Below, piece after piece: positions 8,846 to 54,202 of a stretch of DNA of 64,000 nt. The translations under genes and the position numbers were made by a program. Every line of letters starts with the position of its first letter. Positions within the stretch are counted from its first letter, which is position 1. The notes under the pieces were generated by a model. It ran no database searches. It was given only the letters and a program-made list of their open reading frames with translations, and had not been told where the DNA came from. Origin of the DNA: an uncultured delta proteobacterium (GTDB lineage Bacteria; Desulfobacterota; Desulfobacteria; Desulfobacterales; JAFDCJ01); assembly GCA_963769935.1 (NCBI GenBank), contig CAVYNY010000013.1, positions 96,001-160,000 on the forward strand. The letters run 5' to 3'.

Positions 8846-10003
8846 TTAATTGGAAGAGCTTTGCATATTGCTCGTAAAGAGCTTCGCATATTGCTCGTAA
8901 CCCTCTTCTTTTAATTTATCCTGCGGAATAAATCGCAGGGCCGCTGAGTTGAGGCAGTAACGCAAACCCGTGGGCGGCGGCCCGTCCGGAAATACATGGC
9001 CCAGGTGGGAATCGGCGTGTTTGCTCCTGACTTCGGTACGGACCATAAACAGGCTGCGGTCCTGATGCTCTACGATATTGCCGGGCTCCAGGGGTTTGGT
9101 GAAGCTGGGCCACCCGGTGCCGGAGTCGAATTTATCCGTGGAGCTGAACAACGGTTCACCGGAGACGATGTCGACGTAAATTCCCGGTTTATGGTTATCC
9201 CAGTACTCGTTGCGAAACGGCGGCTCGGTGCCTTCCTGCTGGGTAACATTATACTGCATGGGGGTCAATTTTTGCTTTAAAACGGCATCGTCCGGTTTCG
9301 TATAGCCGGTTCCGGCGGTAGCGGAAGTATTCTGCATCTTTTTGGGGGCAGCTGTTTCTTCTTTGCCCCAGACCTGCGCCAGGAATTGGTCGCGGCCGGA
9401 GCCATAACGGTAATACTTATAACGTAAGGGGTTTTTCTTGTAGTAATCCTGATGATACTCCTCGGCCGGATAAAACGGCCCCAGCTTGACGATTTCGGTG
9501 ACAATGGGTTTGTCGAACCGCCCGGACTGCGCCAGCTTGGCCTTGGATTCTTCGGCCAGACGTCGCTGTTCATCGTCCTGGTAGAAAATGGCGCTGCGGT
9601 ACTGGGTACCGCGGTCCACAAACTGTCCGCCCGCATCGGTCGGATCAATGTGTCGCCAGAAAACATCCAGCAGCTGCTCGTAAGAAACCTTGGCCGGATC
9701 ATATATCACCTGGATGGATTCCGCATGCCCCGTAACGCCGGAGCTCACTTCCTCGTAAGTCGGGTTCTCTGTATGTCCGCCGGTATATCCGGATATAACT
9801 TCCACCACTCCGTCCACTTTTTCAAAATCCGATTCCGTGCACCAGAAACATCCGCCGGCAAAGGTGGCTCGTTTCAAATTTTTATCGTCGTATTGTTTTT
9901 TCATATTGGCAGTTGCATCCTGCTTTTGACTTTTTGCTTGTTGAATGCCTATCAGCACCAATCCCAAAAGAATGATGATGCCGACCCGGATTGTAGTTTT
10001 CAT
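8846..10003 (-). CDS. msrAB: Bifunctional peptide methionine sulfoxide reductase MsrAB with N-terminal signal/anchor (exported)
   Basis: AGGAGG RBS before ATG at 10003; hydrophobic N-terminus; MsrA motifs [20 protein letters not shown]; MsrB motifs GTGWPSF, HLGHVF, RYCLNS. Confidence 0.95.
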
Positions 10004-10079: not shown

Positions 10080-10379
10080 CTACCTTGCGGTTCCGATATA
10101 GGTCCCCGCTTTTTTCAGAATATGCTCCATCTCAGCAATGGTGACCCGCGACGGATCATAATAAACTGTGTTTATCTCTTTGAATTTCTGAAACCCTTTT
10201 TCGATCTTTTTTACTCCCGGCAGCCCATCCAGGGCTGCTTGGCCCACATCATATCACTGGACATAAAACACGGTTTTGGCTAATGCGGGATCCTCGGCAT
10301 GTGCGCTGGCGTAACTGCCGAGGATTAAAAGCGTAAAAAAGGCCAACCTGAGGCCAAATTTTCGATTGTGTTTTGGCAT
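10080..10379 (-). CDS. Putative exported 99-aa selenoprotein (Sec42), MsrA-core / HMA-like fold; absent from the ORF track
   Basis: Hand translation: MPKHNRKFGLRLAFFTLLILGSYASAHAEDPALAKTVFYVQ-U-YDVGQAALDGLPGVKKIEKGFQKFKEINTVYYDPSRVTIAEMEHILKKAGTYIGTAR. In-frame TGA at 10256-10254, TAG at 10082-10080; signal peptide ending AHA; hairpin 15 nt after the UGA. Confidence 0.82.
10220..10238 (-). promoter_or_regulatory. SECIS-like hairpin of the 10080-10379 gene
   Basis: mRNA GCAGCCC-UGGAU-GGGCUGC: perfect 7-bp stem with a G-containing loop, starting 15 nt after the UGA. Confidence 0.75.
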
Positions 10380-10469
10380 GGTTTTATCCCTTCGATGGTT
10401 GTTATGCCGGACTGATTATATCGCTATTTTTGGTTCTGTCTTGTTTGATCTGTAATTTAATCAGTCAGC

Positions 10470-10521: not shown

Positions 10522-10753
10522 CCTTACCTTGGATAAACCAGAACCCAAAAAGCAGGCGGTTGCTCGAATTTCATACTTTTATTTAGAAACTATTTAACTA
10601 AAATCACGTCGTGTTTGCACATGAATTATGCAGCAATCAGATTGAATATTTTAGGTATGTTACCGATTTTAAATTTAAAAGACAGAGCGAAGCGATACAA
10701 CAGATATTCAATCTTCAATTTTCAATATTCAATTCCGGCTTGTCCGGGTTAGG
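10522..10753. repeat. Non-coding repeat / MITE-like element with imperfect terminal inverted repeats
   Basis: Left end ccttaccttggataaaccagaa versus right end ttccggcttgtccgggttagg; the same terminal motif recurs at about 41523-41542; an internal gacagagcgaagcga motif recurs in reverse at about 25333-25349. Confidence 0.45.
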
Positions 10754-12242
10754 GGCGGGTGCGGGCAGGGAGTCGGGCCGGCAGGGAAAATGTAAAACAG
10801 GTGCCGGTTCCCGGTGCACTTTCGACCCTGATGGTTCGATCGTGCAATTCTAGGATGCGCCTGGCAATGGCCAGTCCGAGTCCGGAATATCCTGTTTTGC
10901 CGTTTTGCGTTTGATCTCTGTGATAAAATCGGTCAAAAATAAACGGCATATCTTCCGCAGGGATACCGCAACCGGTATCGCTGACACGCACGGCGATATC
11001 ACCGTTTTGCGGGCTGAAAGCCAGCCGGATCGAACCGCCGGCGGGGGTGTGGCGCACGGCGTTTTCGAGCAGGTTTTCGATGACCCGCTCAATCATGGCG
11101 ATGTCGGCGTTTGCGAAAGGCAGGCTTTGATCAAGGTCGACCTGAATGGCGATTTGTTTTTCACGGGCGGATAAATCGAATTTTTGTACCACATCCTGCG
11201 CCAACTCGCCGATGTTAAACGGTTCATAGCGGGCCTTGGTCTCATGTGAATCCAGTTTGGCGAGTTCGAAAAGCGCATCGACCAGTTTAGCGAGCCTCTC
11301 ACAATGCCGGATGGCAATCTCAAGGTGTTGTTTGCGTTCCTGGGCGGTCAGGTTTTTGTCTTTAAGAAAAAGCGTTTCGATATACCCCTGCAATGTGGCC
11401 AGCGGCGTTCGCAGGTCGTGGGACACGTTGGCGACAAGTTCACGGCGCGACATGTCCGCCTTTTGCAATTTTTCCATTTGCAAATTAATGCGTTCAACGA
11501 GCTGATTAAACGTAAAAGTCAATCGGTCGATTTCATCGCCCTGCTGCCGGTCCTTGACGCGGATGGATTGCAGCCGGGCCGCCGTCTGCGCCCCGTCGAA
11601 GGAATCCATAACGGAGGCCAGGCGTCTCAGTCGACGGGTCAGGTAGGCAAACAACAGCAATCCCGTAACCAGCGCAAAAAAAAGGCTGGCGGCGATCCAC
11701 CAGAAGCTTAACCGCAGGATGTAGCTGCCTTTGAGGTTCTGGACGATGCTGTCGAAAATTTCTCCGCCCAGGATAATGTACAGATATCCCTGCAGCGGGC
11801 CCTGTTCCGGAATGCGCGCGGCCGTAAAAACTTTTTTTCTTCCCGGATTGCGGGGGTCATCGCCGGTCAGCGGAAGCACGACGTCCTTTTCAAACCAGGA
11901 CTTGATCGGCGCCATATCAACGCGGTCCAGCTTGACCTTGCCGGGCGGTGCCGAATAGGCCAGGATCCGGCCGGCGGGATCAAGCAGGTAAACCTCAATG
12001 CTGGGATTGACCACCATCAGCATGTTAAAAATATCTTTGAGCCCCTTCTCATTGATGCGATGCGCCTGCATGAGGATCTTTTGGGCGACGATTTGCCGGG
12101 CCAGATTGCGGTTGAGTTTCTGAACGACTTCCTGCTGGTACATGTCCGATGCAAACTGGGTGACAATGACAATCGACACGCCCAGCAAACAAAACACCCC
12201 GAGCAGTGTCATCGCAAGTTTTGCGTAAAGGGATTTAACCAT
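10749..12242 (-). CDS. HAMP-domain sensor histidine kinase
   Basis: Two TM segments around a periplasmic domain, HAMP (GDEIDRL), H-box NVSHDLRTPL, N-box NLLENA, DTGCGI, GLGLAI; TGATG overlap with the regulator. Confidence 0.93.
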   Translation of the reverse strand: MVKSLYAKLAMTLLGVFCLLGVSIVIVTQFASDMYQQEVVQKLNRNLARQIVAQKILMQAHRINEKGLKDIFNMLMVVNPSIEVYLLDPAGRILAYSAPPGKVKLDRVDMAPIKSWFEKDVVLPLTGDDPRNPGRKKVFTAARIPEQGPLQGYLYIILGGEIFDSIVQNLKGSYILRLSFWWIAASLFFALVTGLLLFAYLTRRLRRLASVMDSFDGAQTAARLQSIRVKDRQQGDEIDRLTFTFNQLVERINLQMEKLQKADMSRRELVANVSHDLRTPLATLQGYIETLFLKDKNLTAQERKQHLEIAIRHCERLAKLVDALFELAKLDSHETKARYEPFNIGELAQDVVQKFDLSAREKQIAIQVDLDQSLPFANADIAMIERVIENLLENAVRHTPAGGSIRLAFSPQNGDIAVRVSDTGCGIPAEDMPFIFDRFYHRDQTQNGKTGYSGLGLAIARRILELHDRTIRVESAPGTGTCFTFSLPARLPARTRP

Positions 12243-12964
12243 CAGCCGGATTCTTTCAAAGCTTCGCTGTCTACAAACTTGTAGCCGACCCCCCATACGG
12301 TGAGAATATATACGGGATGAGCGGGATCCTTTTCGATCTTGGCGCGCAGCCGATTGATGTGCGAATTGACCGTATGCTCGTAGCCGTCATGCCCGTAGCC
12401 CCAGACTCTATCCAGCAGCTGGGACCGGGTATAGACCTTGCCGGGGTTGCGGGCAAAATGCAGCAGCAGGTCGAATTCCTTGGCCGTCAGGTCGACGCTT
12501 TGACCCCCGCAGCGGGCAATTCTTTTGGTTGGATCAATCTCCAGGTCGGCGGCCCGGATGACGGCCGGCACAGCCTCACCGGTCCCCTCCGTTAATTCCT
12601 CCACGCGTCTTAAGATGGCTTTGACCCTCGCCAGCAGTTCTCTGATGCTGAACGGTTTGGTGACGTAGTCGTCCGCCCCTATTTCCAGCCCGAGCACCCG
12701 GTCCATTTCCGAGGACTTGGCGGTCAGCATCAGGATGGGCAGGTAAGCGGGCCTGCGGCGCAGGCGCCGGCAGACTTCCATGCCGTCCAGCCCCGGCAGC
12801 ATCAAATCGAGGATCACTAAATCATAATTAACAGAATTTGCTCTGGCAAGCCCTGTTGGACCGTCAAAGGCCACATCGACCTGAAATGCCAGGTCCCGCA
12901 GATGATTTTCTACAAGATGCGCCAGGTCCCGGTTGTCTTCAATGATTAGAATTTTTTTGGTCAT
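12242..12964 (-). CDS. OmpR/PhoB-family DNA-binding response regulator
   Basis: ILIIED, LDLMLPGLDG, GADDYVTKPF, TVNSHINRLRAKIE, TVWGVGY. Confidence 0.95.
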   Translation of the reverse strand: MTKKILIIEDNRDLAHLVENHLRDLAFQVDVAFDGPTGLARANSVNYDLVILDLMLPGLDGMEVCRRLRRRPAYLPILMLTAKSSEMDRVLGLEIGADDYVTKPFSIRELLARVKAILRRVEELTEGTGEAVPAVIRAADLEIDPTKRIARCGGQSVDLTAKEFDLLLHFARNPGKVYTRSQLLDRVWGYGHDGYEHTVNSHINRLRAKIEKDPAHPVYILTVWGVGYKFVDSEALKESG

Positions 12965-13403: not shown

Positions 13404-14876
13404 ATGAAACTAAAAAACGGGGCGGAATATATCGAAAGTTTGCGTCAATTGAAGCCCAATATATACTACAAAGGCGAGCGCATCACGGATGTCACGCGTC
13501 ATCCAGCGACGGCGCCGCATGTGCGCGCCGCCTCCATGACCTACGCGCTGGCCGCCAAGCCGAAGTACCGCGATCTGGCCACGGCCACTTCCCACCTGAC
13601 GGGCCGCACCATCAGTCGCTTTACCCACGTGCATCAAAACATCGAAGACCTGATCAAAAAGATCAAACTGCTGCGGGTGCTGGGTCAGAAAACCGGCACC
13701 TGTTTTCAGCGCTGTGTGGGATTTGACGGCATCAACGCCGTATATTCGGTGGCCTATGAGATCGATCGGAAGCATGGCACCGATTATCTGAAACGGTTCA
13801 CATCGTGGCTGATCGGCATTCAGGACGAAAACCGGATGGTGGTCGGCGCCATGACCGACCCCAAGGGCGACCGCTCCAAAAGCCCGGCCCAGCAGCCGGA
13901 TCCGGACCAGTATGTGCACGTGGTCGAACGCCGAGCCGACGGCGTGGTCATCCGGGGCGCCAAGCTGCACATGACCGGCGCGGTCAACTCCCATGAAATT
14001 CTGGTCATGCCCACCACCGCGCTGGACGAGCGTTCAAAGGACTTTGCGATGGTGTGTGCGATTCCGATCGACGCCCCCGGCATCACCTTGATTTTCGGCC
14101 GCCAGGCGGGCGACGACCGACGCGACAAGCAGGAGCGGATCGACTCGGGCAAGCCGCGCTTCGGGATCGTGGGCGGCGAGGCCGTGATCGCATTCGAAGA
14201 TGTGTTCGTGCCCAATGAGCGGATTTTCCTGAACGGCGAGACCGAGTTTACCGGCCTGCTGGTCTATCGTTTTGCGGCCCATCACCGGGCCAATTACGGG
14301 GCCTGCAAAACCGGGCTGATGGATGTGCTGACAGGGGCGGTCAGCTACCTCGCGCAGATTCAGGGGGCAGCCCAGGGCTCGCATATCAAAGACAAGGTGA
14401 CCGAGATGATCCACCTGAGCGAGACCCTTTACAGCTCATCGATCGCCTGTTCGGCCGAAGGGGTGCCGACCCCCTCCGGGGCTTACATGGTGGACACGAT
14501 GCTGGCCAACGTCTGCAAGCAGAATGTGACCCGCTTCCACTTCGAAGTGGCGCGGCTGGCCACCGACATTGCGGGCGGGTTCATCGCCACCATGCCCAGC
14601 GAGTACGACCTGAGAAGCGAGGATGTCGGCCATCTGGTCAAAAAGTATTTTGTCGGGGTGTCCGAGATTCCCGTGGAAGACCGCATCAAGATCGGCCGGC
14701 TGATCGAGGCCATGACCGGCGGCACGGCCATGGTGGAGTCCATGCACGGGGCCGGCTCGCCCCAGGCCCAGCGCATCATGATTTTTCGAGAAGGCAAACT
14801 GGCCGAAAAAATCAAGCTCGCCAAAGCCCTGGCGGGGATTCCCCAGCACAAAAAAGGGGAAAAGGCGTCGAAATGA
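13404..14876 (+). CDS. abfD: 4-hydroxybutyryl-CoA dehydratase / vinylacetyl-CoA isomerase (AbfD-like, HpaB superfamily)
   Basis: TGTCFQRCVG and HHRANYGACK supply the Cys/Cys/His/Cys [4Fe-4S] ligand pattern; GAMTDPKGDR; ESMHGAGSPQAQRI. Confidence 0.85.
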   Translation: MKLKNGAEYIESLRQLKPNIYYKGERITDVTRHPATAPHVRAASMTYALAAKPKYRDLATATSHLTGRTISRFTHVHQNIEDLIKKIKLLRVLGQKTGTCFQRCVGFDGINAVYSVAYEIDRKHGTDYLKRFTSWLIGIQDENRMVVGAMTDPKGDRSKSPAQQPDPDQYVHVVERRADGVVIRGAKLHMTGAVNSHEILVMPTTALDERSKDFAMVCAIPIDAPGITLIFGRQAGDDRRDKQERIDSGKPRFGIVGGEAVIAFEDVFVPNERIFLNGETEFTGLLVYRFAAHHRANYGACKTGLMDVLTGAVSYLAQIQGAAQGSHIKDKVTEMIHLSETLYSSSIACSAEGVPTPSGAYMVDTMLANVCKQNVTRFHFEVARLATDIAGGFIATMPSEYDLRSEDVGHLVKKYFVGVSEIPVEDRIKIGRLIEAMTGGTAMVESMHGAGSPQAQRIMIFREGKLAEKIKLAKALAGIPQHKKGEKASK

Positions 14877-15443
14877 CTTCTTATTACAACCAGAAACCGT
14901 GGCGGGCAACCTATCCCGAATGGCTGCCGGGGGAACTTCCGGTACCGGTGGTCAGCCTGCTGGACGAATTTATACAGTCCGCCACCGCCTATCCGGATGA
15001 TCCGTGTCTCCACTACTATGAACGGATACCGGGAAAAACCGGAGGAAACGGCCAATGCCATTCGCAACGGCCGCTTGCACACCGGCGATGTGGCTAAGCT
15101 CGATGAACACGGCTGGTGTTTCATCGCCGACCGCCAAAAATATCTAATCAACGCCTCCGGGTCTAAAGTCTGGCCGCGCGAAGTGGAGGACGTACTCAAT
15201 CAGCATCCCGGGGTCAGAGAAGCGGCCGTGGTCGGCGTACCGGATGCTTACCGGGGCGAAACAGTCAAAGCTTTTGTTGCCCTGACGGACGAGTACAGAG
15301 AAACCGTCACAGCGAACGACTTGACTCACTTTTGCAAAGAGCGCATGGCAGCCTATAAGTATCCACGGATCGTCGAAATCATCGATGAAGTTCCCAAGAC
15401 GCTGACCGGAAAGTATTTGCGGCGCAAACTGCGCGAGGTCTAA
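14873..15443 (+). pseudogene. Long-chain acyl-CoA ligase with a large internal deletion and frameshift
   Basis: N-terminal ~49 codons (KPW...YP) joined out of frame near 15020 to the C-terminal AMP-binding segment (LHTGD, PREVEDVL, YKYPR, PKTLTGK); the central core with the P-loop is missing. Confidence 0.85.
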
Positions 15444-17229: not shown

Positions 17230-17952
17230 TTAGTCGAAGGCCATCTCCGTTTTCCAGGCCTGCCAGACTTTTCCGACCAGATCCGGGCCCGGCTTGAGCG
17301 TCGTTTTGCCCGGTTTCCAGCCGGAGGGCGTAGCTTCCTTGCCCTTTGATTCCCGGACAAGCTGGAAGGCCTGGACTTGCCGGAATGTTTCCCCCACGTT
17401 GCGTCCGACCGGCGGCGTCAGCACCTCGTAGCCCTGAATCACACCGTCCGGATCAATGATAAAGCGGCCCCGGTTTTCGACCCCGGCTTCTTCATTGAAG
17501 ACGCCATATACTTTTCCCACCTTGCCCCCGGTATCCGACAACATGGCAAAAGGAATTCCGCCGTCCACCATTTTTGACAACTCGTGGTCATCCCACATTT
17601 TGTGGACAAACACACTGTCGATGCTCATGGATATTACTTCAACGCCCAGCTTCTGAAACTCCGGGTATTTTTCAGCAACTGCTGAAATCTCCGTTGCTCA
17701 GACAAAGGTAAAGTCGCCCGGATAAAAACAGAGCAGTACCCATTTGCCTAAAAACTCCGACAGCTTAAGTGAAATAAATTGTCCCTTGTGATATCCCGGT
17801 GCTGCAAAATCCGGCGCCTTTTGGCCGACATGAATCATAGCTGAAATCTCCTTGCGAGTAGTTGGAATTTCGTTTTTGGTTTCTTCTTCAGCAATCTCAC
17901 CGACCGGACCGCCGGTCGGTCGTGCACAGCCGACATCCATCTTTTCCGCCAT
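17230..17952 (-). CDS. prxU: Selenocysteine-containing peroxiredoxin PrxU (240 aa; ORF track splits it in two)
   Basis: [12 protein letters not shown](17700-17698)[28 protein letters not shown] continues in frame; the UGA occupies the peroxidatic Cys position of PxxxTxxC; GGAGG RBS. Confidence 0.93.
17670..17687 (-). promoter_or_regulatory. SECIS-like hairpin of prxU
   Basis: mRNA UUUCAGC-AGUU-GCUGAAA stem-loop starting 10 nt after the UGA. Confidence 0.7.
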
Positions 17953-36874: not shown

Positions 36875-36958
36875 ATCGGCCGGAATACGCTACCGGCTGG
36901 ATTTTACCCTGGCAGGGTGAATATCGAGCCAAAACCGATGGAAAGGGAGGTAAGGCAT

Positions 36959-37357
36959 ATGTCGTTGTACAAAACGGTTTCGGAAAACGAGGCCACCGGA
37001 AAAGTGAAAGAGGTATATGACGATCTCAAGGCGACCAAAAAGATCGATTTCGTTCCGAATTTCTGGAAGGCGCTTTCGATCAATCCGGATCACCTGGAAG
37101 CCGTCTGGCAGAAGCTGAAGGCCGTCATGAAACCCGGCAAGCTCGATTTGCGCACCAAGGAGATCATCGCCCTCGCGGTTTCGATCACCAACAATTGTGA
37201 GTACTGAATCCACTCCCACAGCGCCGCCGTGAAGCGGCTTGGACTTGACAACGAGGCCATCGGTGAGATCGTGGCCGTGGTGGACGTGTTTTCCGGCACA
37301 AATTGTATTGCAAATGCCTATCGGGTCGAGCCGGATGTTTCGCCCGCCCCCGAATGA
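36959..37357 (+). CDS. AhpD / carboxymuconolactone-decarboxylase family selenoprotein (CxxU), 132 aa
   Basis: KEIIALAVSITNNCEY-TGA(37205-37207)-IHSHSAAVKRLG...SPAPE* continues in frame for 49 codons and matches the AhpD CxxC..H core; GGAGG RBS. Confidence 0.9.
37223..37238 (+). promoter_or_regulatory. SECIS-like hairpin of the AhpD-like gene
   Basis: GCCGC-CGUGAA-GCGGC stem-loop starting 15 nt after the UGA. Confidence 0.65.
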
Positions 37358-51127: not shown

Positions 51128-54100
51128 ATGAAAGTAAACCGACGGGAGTTTATCCAGGTTACCGGAGCTGCGGCTGCCGGACTTGCCTTCAGCGGATTGG
51201 GATTTGACCTGCGCCCGGTCAAAGCCCATGCCCAGATGCTGAAAACCAAGTATGCCAAGGAAACCACCACCATCTGCTGCTATTGCGCGGTGGGCTGCGG
51301 TGCCATCGTACATACCAGCCAAAAAGGCGACGGCCGGGTCATCAACATCGAAGGCGATCCGGACCATGTGATCAACCGGGGCTCGCTGTGCTCGAAAGGT
51401 GCGGCCCTGACCCAGTTGGTGGAAAACAGCGAGCGCATCACCGAGCCGATGTACCGGGCGCCGTATTCAAAAGAATGGCAAAAGGTTTCCTGGAACTGGG
51501 CCTTGACGGAAATCGCCCACCGCGTCAAAGCCACGCGCGAGGCTACATTTGAGGCCAAAAACACCAAGGGGCAGCTCGTCAACCGCACCGGGGGCATCGC
51601 CTCGGTGGGCAGTGCCGCTCTGGACAACGAGGAGTGCTGGCTTTACCAGGCACTGATCCGGGCCATCGGGGTGACATATATCGAACACCAGGCTCGTATC
51701 TGACACAGCGCCACAGTTGCGGCTCTGGCAGAGTCGTTCGGACGCGGCGCGATGACCAATCACTGGATCGACATCAAAAACAGTGACTGCATTTTAATCA
51801 TGGGCAGCAATGCTGCCGAAAACCACCCTATTTCCTTCAAATATGTGGCTGCCGCCCAGCAGCGCGGCACCCAGCTGATCAATGTGGATCCCCGTTTCAC
51901 GCGCACTTCTTCCAAAGCAGACATCTACGCGCCCATTCGATCGGGGACGGATATCGCTTTTCTGGGGGGTATGATCAAGTATATCCTGGACAATGACCTC
52001 TATTTCGAGGAATACGTCGCCAATTACACCAATGCGCCTTTTATCGTCGGGCCGGCCTATGATTTTAAGGACGGTCTGTTTTCGGGCTACAATGCGCAAA
52101 CCCGCAAGTACGACCAAAGCAAATGGGCCTTTGAGATGGACGCCAACGGCGTGCCGAAAATGGATCACACCCTGCAGGACAAACGATCTGTGTTTCAGCT
52201 GCTGAAAAATCACTATGCCCGTTACACCCCCGAGCTGGTGTCTGAAATCACCGGAACGCCAAAAGAGAGTCTGTTGGTAATTTACAAGACCTATGCCGCC
52301 ACGGGTGCCAGGGGCAAGGCGGGGACCATCATGTATGCCATGGGCTGGACCCAGCACACCGTAGGGGTTCAAAACATCCGCGCCATGGCGATCATCCAGT
52401 TGCTGCTGGGCAATATGGGGGTTGCCGGCGGCGGCGTCAATGCCCTGCGCGGGGAGTCCAACGTCCAGGGCTCCACCGATCACTGCCTGCTGTGGCACAT
52501 CTGGCCCGGTTATCTGAGAACCCCCCGGGCATCCGACGTGTCACTGGCAGTCTACAATGAGAAGTCGACCCCTAAGAGCAACGACCCACTCAGTGCCAAC
52601 TGGTGGCAGAATTATCCTAAATATTCGATTAGCTTGCTCAAGTCGTTTTTCGGGGATAATGCCACCGCTGCCAACAATTTCGGCTTCAACTGGCTGCCCA
52701 AGGTGGACGACGGCCAAGATTACTCCTGGCTGACGCTGTTTGACGAAATGTACAAGGGCGCCTTCAAGGGATTCTTTGCCTGGGGCCAGAACCCGGCTTG
52801 CAGCGGCGCCAACGCCGGTAAAAACCGCAAGGCGTTTGCCAAACTGGACTGGATGGTCAATGTCAATCTCTTTGCCAATGAGACCGGCTCCTTCTGGAAA
52901 GGACCAGGGGTCGATCCGGCCGAAATCAAGACCGAGGTTTTTTTCCTGCCGGCCGCCGTGTCAGTTGAAAAAGAAGGCAGCATCACCAACAGCGGCCGCT
53001 GGAGCCAGTGGCGCTACCCGGGCCCCAAACCGCTGGGCAACAGCCTGCCGGACGGCCAGATGATCATGGAACTGGGCCACAAAATCAAAGCCGAATATAA
53101 AAAGGGCGGCACCCTGCCGGAACCAATTGTCAATCTCAAGTGGGATTATCTGACCGACGGCAAGTACGATCCCCACAAAGTCGCCAAAGAAATCAACGGC
53201 TACTTTTTAAAAGACGTCACTATCAAAGATAAAACCTACAAACAAGGCACCCTGGTGCCCAGTTTTGCCTTTCTGCAGACCGACGGCTCGACCTCGTCGG
53301 GCAACTGGCTTTATTGCAACAGCTATACCGAAAAAGGCAATATGGCGGCCCGCCGCAGCCAGAAGGATGCCCCCAACAACATCGGACTGTACCCGGAGTT
53401 TGCCTGGTGCTGGCCGGTTAACCGCCGTATCATATACAACCGCGCCTCGGTGGATCTCAAAGGGCAGCCCTGGGACAAGGAACAGCCGGTCATCCAATTC
53501 GCCGGCGATTCCGCCGACGGCAAGTATATTTCGAACAAATGGGTCGGCGATGTTCCCGACGGCGGCTGGTATCCCATGCAGAATCCCGACGGCACCATGC
53601 GCGCGGATTCCAAGTATCCGTTTATCATGCGCAAGCACGGACACGGCCAGATCTTCGGCCCGGGACGGGCCGACGGTCCTTTCCCGGAACACTACGAGCC
53701 GCTGGAATGTCCCATCGAGAAAAACCTGCTGAGCAGCCAGCGGATGAACCCGACCGCACCGGTCTATGGAACCAAGGCTGACGAATGGGCCAGCTGCGAT
53801 CCGCGATATCCCTATGTGGCGACCACCTACCGCGTGACGGAACACTGGCAGACGGGGGTCATGACGCGCTGGCAGCCCTGGCTGCTGGAAATGCAGCCCC
53901 AGGTATTCGTGGAAATGAGCGAGGAACTGGCCCTATTGAAGGGCATTAAAAAGGGTGAGCGGGTCAAAGTTTCATCCCCGCGCGGCTCCCTGATGGCAAC
54001 GGCAATTGTCACCAAACGGTTGCAGCCGTTTAAAATCGGCGGTGCCGTGGTGCACCAGGTCGGGTTGCCGTGGCATTATGGCTGGCGCATGCCGGTCAGC

Positions 54101-54202
54101 GGTCTGGAGGAAAGTGCCAACCTGCTGACGGCGGCCACCGGCGATCCCAACACCCGCATTCCTGAAACCAAAGCCTTTATGGTGAATGTCACCCAAAAAT
54201 AG
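51128..54202 (+). CDS. fdhA: Periplasmic Sec-containing formate dehydrogenase alpha subunit (FdnG/FdhA type), 1024 aa
   Basis: Tat signal NRREFI; CCYCAVGC Fe-S motif; EHQARI-TGA(51701-51703)-HSATVAALAESFGRGAMTNHW in frame with the 51752 ORF; ALRGESNVQG. Confidence 0.96.
51710..51729 (+). promoter_or_regulatory. SECIS-like hairpin of fdhA
   Basis: GCCAcAG-UUGCGG-CUcUGGC stem-loop immediately 3' of the UGA. Confidence 0.7.

Follow-up and report, generated by a model that had tools for sequence, protein, structure and literature searches.

On the minus strand of the window, by which we mean the whole 64,000-nucleotide stretch of DNA that was analysed, lies a gene that starts with ATG at position 10379, reads through an in-frame TGA at codon 42, continues for 57 sense codons and ends with TAG at 10080 (Table 1). 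The listing of open reading frames, made without read-through, held just a 55-residue, GTG-start fragment of it. A preliminary description of this DNA had placed a hidden minus-strand frame here, with the same coordinates, the TGA at codon 42, the 57 further codons and a mature chain free of cysteine, and all of this is borne out by the sequence. Gene callers truncate this small gene at its internal stop; most likely, its product is exported and contains just one selenocysteine (Sec). No paralog was found in its own genome using tblastn. One of four metatranscriptome runs yielded a single contig across the gene (depth 4, 94% alike) that extends over the TGA, where no change is listed, bearing in mind that contigs cannot show transcription.

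The gene is accompanied on the same strand by an msrAB gene and a two-component system (Table 1). Further along the window, the three other genes with a UGA codon and hairpin that had been noted previously, encoding a peroxiredoxin, an AhpD-like protein and FdhA, are all present. In four RNA runs, the intergenic stretch 10670-10755 attracted hits from numerous unrelated contigs, loose-ended at either side, and it probably represents a dispersed repeat of small size. At 14873-15443 (+), an acyl-CoA-synthetase-like gene is present as fragments in two frames. Elsewhere in the source genome, an exported Sec-MsrA (GUFWG) with a lipoprotein-like leader is encoded at G000:C11:57550-58250 (+), with an msrB motif 1.4 kb off; it is frameshifted near its C-terminal third in the assembly, and many intact relatives exist in the class (L222-L235).

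Table 1 Features of the selenoprotein locus and further Sec-encoding genes, in window positions
Feature	Position	Strand	Basis or remark
Selenoprotein gene, 99 aa, Sec at codon 42	10080..10379	-	sequence and family conservation
Predicted signal peptide, residues 1-28, ending in AHA	10296..10379	-	sequence; putative cleavage site
Predicted mature 71-aa ferredoxin-like domain, beta-alpha-beta-beta-alpha-beta	10083..10295	-	AlphaFold2
Predicted Sec codon (in-frame TGA), opposite the catalytic Cys of MsrA and the second CxxC Cys of HMA	10254..10256	-	alignment
SECIS-like apical hairpin, GG in loop, GCAGCCC-UGGAU-GGGCUGC	10220..10238	-	fold and family
Glu68, aligns with MsrA Glu94	10176..10178	-	alignment; kept in 160/163 non-redundant homologs
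Thr93-Tyr94; Thr 156/163, Tyr/Phe 158/163	10098..10103	-	putative place near MsrA Tyr134, from structural-match range ends only
RBS-like GAAGGGA, 7 nt 5' of ATG	10387..10393	-	sequence
Sigma-70-like promoter, 10/12 positions, TATAAT	10415..10442	-	consensus match alone
msrAB, N-terminal hydrophobic leader, GCFWC motif	8846..10003	-	starts 76 nt past selenoprotein stop
Sensor histidine kinase	10749..12296	-	subfamily Met of FHMLM kept 88% and 100% (n=18)
OmpR-type response regulator	12242..12964	-	upstream of the selenoprotein gene
Sec peroxiredoxin, FTFVU, TGA 17700, split by ORF calling	17230-17952	-	close in sequence to a deep-Sep supplement entry
AhpD/CMD-like selenoprotein, CEYU, TGA 37205, hairpin	36938-37354	+	
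Formate dehydrogenase alpha subunit FdhA, Sec, TGA 51701, hairpin	51128-54202	+	

Conservation of the TGA codon and its hairpin

A scan of genome contigs with the single protein as query gave no match, and with the alignment as query it gave 77 loci. From 237 hits in all, leaving out two that were gapped at the Sec site, we obtained 195 distinct genes, of which 174 carry TGA at this site, 13 TGT, five TGC, two CGA and one AGC. Cysteine is thus encoded in 18, arginine in two and serine in one, and TGG never occurs, which is the picture of TGA or Cys codons that the preliminary description had expected of homologs, along with conservation beyond the TGA. The latter is seen in 150 homologs, whose differences to the window gene follow a coding pattern on both sides, with third codon positions differing most, then first, then second (0.62, 0.42 and 0.25 upstream; 0.60, 0.25 and 0.20 downstream). 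A protein search returned 30 homologs as 55-residue fragments starting past the site or as full chains with Trp there. Because one of these, P0013, equals the gene at locus L044 letter for letter bar a W for the TGA, the Trp in the databases is a misread TGA. The Cys homologs are named in their sources as 'copper chaperone CopZ', 'MsrA' or hypothetical.

The 7-bp hairpin reported 15 nt past the TGA is present and, with -19.9 kcal/mol and a z of -1.9, was matched by 9 of 200 shuffles; since on its own this is modest, chance is excluded via the family and not via the single fold. Its four-bp core and GG loop are found in 166 of 174 TGA genes vs none of 18 Cys genes, one pair being changed from C-G to U-A in eight genes. 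Codon usage points the same way: the Leu codon within the hairpin ends in G in 161/161 TGA genes, vs six codons used for a distant conserved Leu, and the preceding Ala codon ends in C in 155/161; in these first 161 TGA genes, conserved Leu, Ala, Gly and Thr codons outside the hairpin vary freely. Part of the conservation seen at residues 49-53 is imposed by the hairpin.

The components for Sec insertion whose presence was to be confirmed (selA, selB, selC and selD) were all found in the source genome, as tRNA-Sec, selB, two selD and selA. The selA gene lies in two frames owing to a one-base indel (G000:C22:678107-679262, -), which is likely an assembly error, because EF-Tu-like genes on the same contig are also in pieces; the assembly has further shifts in essential genes. 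Among the carrier genomes tested, 51/54 have selB. Genes of the Cys type also occur in genomes with selA and selB, and therefore are not simply the form kept by hosts lacking Sec. In the window gene, SelB would almost certainly read the hairpin, leading to insertion of Sec at codon 42. None of the outcomes named beforehand as refuting the selenoprotein reading was encountered.

The absence of TGG from 195 genes in practice rules out the TGA as a Trp codon or a true stop, and the wider notion of a pseudogene or two tiny ORFs, which could draw on the Trp and 55-residue entries in databases and on other frameshifts in the assembly, is extremely improbable given the identity of P0013 and L044, the Cys homologs, the constraint on the SECIS-like element and the coding signal on both sides of the TGA.

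The family was found in 37 of the 401 class genomes, in 15 of 401 genomes at phylum level and in 21 of 64 from the class reached via a Nitrospirota record; named records belong to Desulfobacterales, Syntrophales, Desulfomonilia, Thermodesulfovibrionales and Nitrospirota, with one Planctomycetota bin, and the record of an Olavius symbiont also has a family gene (L054). In two related genes (L056, L184), CGA (Arg) replaces the TGA and the hairpin is damaged, so that Sec was lost without a stop. Several copies per genome occur in L130-L132, with two paralogs on either side of an ECF sigma gene in L130, and G788 has five family matches in which Sec and Cys types are mixed.

Export, predicted fold and active site

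A hydrophobic, signal-like stretch precedes the Sec site in 162 of 163 genes and, using the same hydropathy rule, occurs in the mature part of none of 171. Export is therefore likely, in agreement with the signal peptide recognised earlier, and the Sec export pathway would very probably carry the chain out. For the mature part, AlphaFold2 on 89 homologs gave a model with a pLDDT of 93.8 that places selenocysteine at the start of helix 1. Its structural matches include MerP (Z 10.8, rmsd 1.7) and the HMA domain of ATP7B (Z 9.8), each over 66 residues, and MsrA of Clostridium oremlandii (Z 8.3, rmsd 1.3 over 66 residues); the best Z-scores are those of HMA domains and the lowest rmsd values those of MsrA cores (1.3-1.6 A over 66-68 residues). 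Foldseek with the model returned nothing at E <= 0.001, the best hit of a PDB sequence search was MerP (E 0.0018), and the nearest ESM Atlas clusters, which are leads only, were HMA (scores 0.86-0.88). The 'mini-MsrA / HMA-like' fold proposed at the outset is thus matched by a model that ties HMA/MerP with the MsrA core, 'mini-MsrA' describing a shape and not enzyme membership.

The sequence comparison is likewise balanced. Profiles built from 49 neighbouring MsrA domains and from 73 HMA domains, a set rich in CopA of one class, resulted in a tie (96.0% over 60 columns for MsrA vs 96.7% over 53 for HMA), and 60 columns at ~20% identity are too little to decide between MsrA and HMA ancestry. 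In the alignment with the MsrA profile, Sec falls on the catalytic Cys and Tyr43 on Phe, Gly-Phe pairs with Gly-Tyr, and Glu68 pairs with the Glu of HxE. In the MsrA of the window, Cys+31 is the Tyr of NPTY, +43 the Glu of HAE and +83 the Tyr of QY, and the Glu that the preliminary description had aligned by eye (E-INT with E-SIQ) is Cys+43, which is Glu94 in MsrA. Its placement of Sec on the catalytic Cys accordingly stands, and more of the site is kept than it had said, since Glu94 is also included. This Glu is no proof of MsrA ancestry, because 94% of the HMA set from the same class has Glu at that place, and its conservation may reflect a structural role.

Other parts of the MsrA site are gone. 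The family motif is x-U-Y/F-D-V-G, vs G[C/U]FW[G/C] in MsrA, with an aromatic residue directly after Cys/Sec in 159 of 163 homologs and, at the place of the Trp, Asp in 142 of 163 and never Trp. A 17-residue gap over NPTY removes the Tyr82 loop and the chain stops short of the His and Tyr of HQxY, consistent with the reported lack of the GCFW Trp, the NPTYEEV loop and the C-terminal half of MsrA. The GMxCxxC loop of HMA domains is missing too (a 6-residue gap in the global alignment), and the strand-to-helix loop has the length of that in MsrA. Overall, the N-terminal half is MsrA-like (F-x-x-x-U, the aromatic next to it, and a Gly-aromatic pair closing strand 2), and size and C-terminal end are HMA-like. 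A second Cys occurs in 0/271 full domains, all of which have a single Sec or Cys. In three MsrA structural matches the last residue of the model lies six past the Tyr134-type residue, judging from range ends only.

According to PMC6210582, the catalytic residue of MsrA is Cys51, its general acid is Glu94, either Tyr82 or Tyr134 donates a proton, and a Trp grips the methyl group. The site of C. oremlandii MsrA comprises GCFWG, Tyr47, Glu55, Gln89, Tyr90, His137 and Tyr140 (PMC4333827, accessible part). In the model and the alignment, the selenolate of the window protein would be exposed at the start of helix 1, in the place of the MsrA catalytic Cys.

Gene neighbourhood and proposed role

For the neighbour census, which used a radius of ~1.5 kb, we took the 105 distinct genes that had 1.4 kb or more of sequence to either side. 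An Msr motif was nearby in 57 of these loci and absent in 48, a molybdopterin oxidoreductase of the MsrP/sulfite-oxidase kind was nearby in 27, either of the two in 72 and neither in 33, counts that overstate independence because the genomes are related. Two-component systems were seen at 37/105 loci, YHS proteins at 9/105 and exported Met-rich proteins at 7/105. An HMA CxxC motif was near just two of 105, no recurrent metal transporter cluster was seen among the neighbours, and some loci have MerA-like or arsS genes. Of the 'redox or metal-binding' role first put forward, the context therefore leans towards redox (Msr at 57/105) over metal (HMA CxxC at 2/105). The 8-Mb source genome has Msr motifs in only five places. 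Msr was near 17 of 30 loci in a sample of the class and, in a Nitrospirota sample of which 27/30 loci were readable by pattern, near 14 of the 15 genes with Cys and five of the 12 with TGA; at six Cys-type loci, msrAB begins 2 nt past the stop.

The best matches of the upstream kinase are general kinase models and do not identify it as HprS. The kinase (10749-12296, -) and its relatives share periplasmic FHMLM and IEVYLLD motifs and are linked to msrAB and spondin-domain genes; judging by these motifs, the subfamily is a candidate methionine-switch sensor. The Met-rich exported neighbours in Nitrospirota (L045:6023-6481, L086; 20-31% Met) match no Pfam or NCBIfam family and are candidate MrpX-like scavengers. 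Directly upstream in 41 of 139 loci are twin-Arg molybdopterin proteins of ~220 aa with an LLICPG motif (L124:3269-3928, L055, L040, L130), which score below the MsrP and SorA cut-offs.

Taken together, these data make it likely that an exported protein of 71 residues meets periplasmic oxidants with its single Sec within the adjoining methionine-repair system, and we consider a function in Msr-linked oxidant defence probable; the best reading is of an oxidant scavenger or a redox relay in a methionine-repair regulon. How it would do so is held more tentatively: with close to an even chance, the protein is a periplasmic single-Sec oxidant trap that retains MsrA-like chemistry without the substrate pocket and is not a true MsrA. 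The selenolate would attack an oxygen or chlorine donor, such as hypochlorite, chloramine, peroxide or a weakly bound sulfoxide, and Glu68 could donate the proton in the manner of MsrA Glu94. Such a trap would be unselective because it has no Trp pocket, and would require re-reduction from outside because there is no second Cys; candidate donors are the GCFWC MsrAB, the molybdo-enzyme often found alongside, or sulfide or thiols. By analogy, the upstream two-component system may induce the operon upon methionine oxidation.

It is possible, though somewhat unlikely, that the protein instead serves as a periplasmic recycling partner, its selenolate reducing the oxidised GCFWC site (or MsrB) and passing the oxidation on, in parallel to the thioredoxin-like N-terminal domain of Neisseria PilB or the Sec-glutaredoxin of C. 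oremlandii MsrA. HMA-fold proteins are small docking shuttles, which would suit this role, as would the close same-strand linkage to an exported MsrAB without a fused thioredoxin domain and the GCFWC motif in 66 of 66 neighbouring MsrA domains counted; moreover, a periplasmic Msr requires a reductant (PMC6210582, accessible part). However, the fold is not that of thioredoxin, a resolving Cys is absent, 48 of the 105 loci have no Msr nearby, and msrAB-like genes are common in the class, yet only 37 of its 401 genomes have the selenoprotein. Nor was any fusion to Msr seen in 208 domain hits at the loci or in nine longer homologs, from a search that scored 8000 candidates, so that this absence is weak.

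Binding of Cu(I), Hg(II), Ag(I) or As(III) by an exported HMA/MerP-like protein that has lost the first Cys of CxxC, with the metal held by one Sec and perhaps bridged between two copies, is distinctly unlikely. The HMA top Z-scores and ESM Atlas leads, a weak NF041115 match in 88 of 89 members, the MerA-like or arsS genes at some loci, and the earlier prediction, for relatives, of exported HMA selenoproteins that have CxxU or a lone U (PMC12013277) would all agree with it; the lack of GMxCxxC, the MsrA-length strand-to-helix loop, the rarity of nearby HMA CxxC motifs and the lack of a recurring metal transporter cluster argue against it.

We regard as very unlikely that Sec, Glu68 and Thr93/Tyr94 form an MsrA-type site without stereo-selectivity, making the protein a true minimal sulfoxide reductase and MsrA a descendant of an HMA-sized core. 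The positions of Cys51, Phe52 and Glu94 are kept, and the invariant Thr93 would fall at Tyr134 in three MsrA matches, as estimated from range ends. Against this, Asp stands where MsrA has the methyl-holding Trp, neither the Tyr82 loop nor the active-site His and Tyr remain, and the C. oremlandii site is reported to collapse on truncations that are smaller still (PMC4333827).

Relation to known families and systems

No Pfam family matches the window protein, the cut-off of PMSR (PF01625)/TIGR00401 not being reached; across 89 members, PF01625 matched weakly in 16 (best E 4e-4). In NCBIfam release 20, the window protein scored 33.1 bits on NF041383 (cut-off 275), over model positions 139-203 only, and 25.8 bits on NF041115 (cut-off 95), lacking UxxU and having one Sec. 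Over the 89 members nothing better than these two models was found, NF041383 being best in 89/89, and searches of 151 genomes with both found no member above cut-off. None of 119 selenoprotein families listed in 2026 (PMC13188914) fits by motif or model, labels and not sequences being compared. The four deep-Sep supplements with their representative sequences (PMC12013277) show none of the words typical of the family, and the accessible portion of the Olavius main text (PMC1976440) names no such family. No paper on it was found in print, with the BSepDB family table and the 2007 Olavius supplement outside this comparison. As suspected from the start, then, this is not a family described in these sources, and we could not find it catalogued as what it appears to be, a widespread selenoprotein family of anaerobic bacteria, with the nearest listed families compared by label.

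Its nearest relatives each share part of its features. Like MsrA (PF01625), including the Sec-MsrA of C. oremlandii (GUFWG, PDB 4lwj), it has the core fold (rmsd 1.3 A over 66 residues), F-x-x-x-U, the aromatic after Sec, the Gly-aromatic end of strand 2 and E-x-x-x-V-x-Y-D-P, and like the C. oremlandii enzyme it has a lone Sec without a resolving Cys; unlike MsrA, it has 71 instead of ~150-200 residues and Asp for Trp53, and lacks the NPTY loop, the DPT...QY region and HQxY. With NF041115 ('putative mercuric reductase', UxxU/CxxU) and the MerP/CopZ HMA domains (PF00403) it shares size, fold, the A-G-x-Y C-terminus and export, its Sec matching the second Cys/Sec of their motif, but it has one Sec, no GMxCxxC and a place beside msr genes instead of metal transporters. 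The C-terminal, MsrA-like part of NF041383 (VPGUxxT thioredoxin-like type 2, OS_HP5) is its top NCBIfam match, a part on which true MsrA scores about equally, whereas the Sec of NF041383 lies in a thioredoxin-like N-terminal part that, along with VPGU, is missing here.

The family is a common but hidden addition to the bacterial selenoproteome, present in about one in eleven genomes of the class and a third of those of a Nitrospirota class, and appearing in databases as 55-aa fragments, under the name 'CopZ' or with its TGA misread as Trp. It would place a selenoprotein in the periplasmic methionine repair of anaerobes. Surprise at its breadth, its Msr link and its bridging of HMA and MsrA is moderated by the fairly frequent reports of new selenoprotein families in bacteria. 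The boldest reading, which we think unlikely, is of a stand-alone selenoenzyme of 71 residues performing MsrA-type oxygen transfer on an HMA-sized scaffold, linking metal chaperones with MsrA and forming a periplasmic selenium shield against reactive chlorine or oxygen in sulfate reducers and Nitrospirota. The protein is small enough to ask whether an HMA-sized fold can support the catalytic core of MsrA, and the natural Cys versions make this easier.

The gene context of the family resembles two known systems of periplasmic chlorine defence: MrpX/YedY of Azospira (PMC4436054) and HypVW(HprSR)-msrPQ of E. coli, in which HypV is a Met-switch kinase found with msrPQ (10.1101/2021.09.09.459708). 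Both differ from it in being without a selenoprotein, and we claim no sequence likeness to MrpX; the likeness lies in the combination of an exported Msr, a molybdo-enzyme, Met-rich exported proteins and a sensor with conserved Met residues in its periplasmic part.
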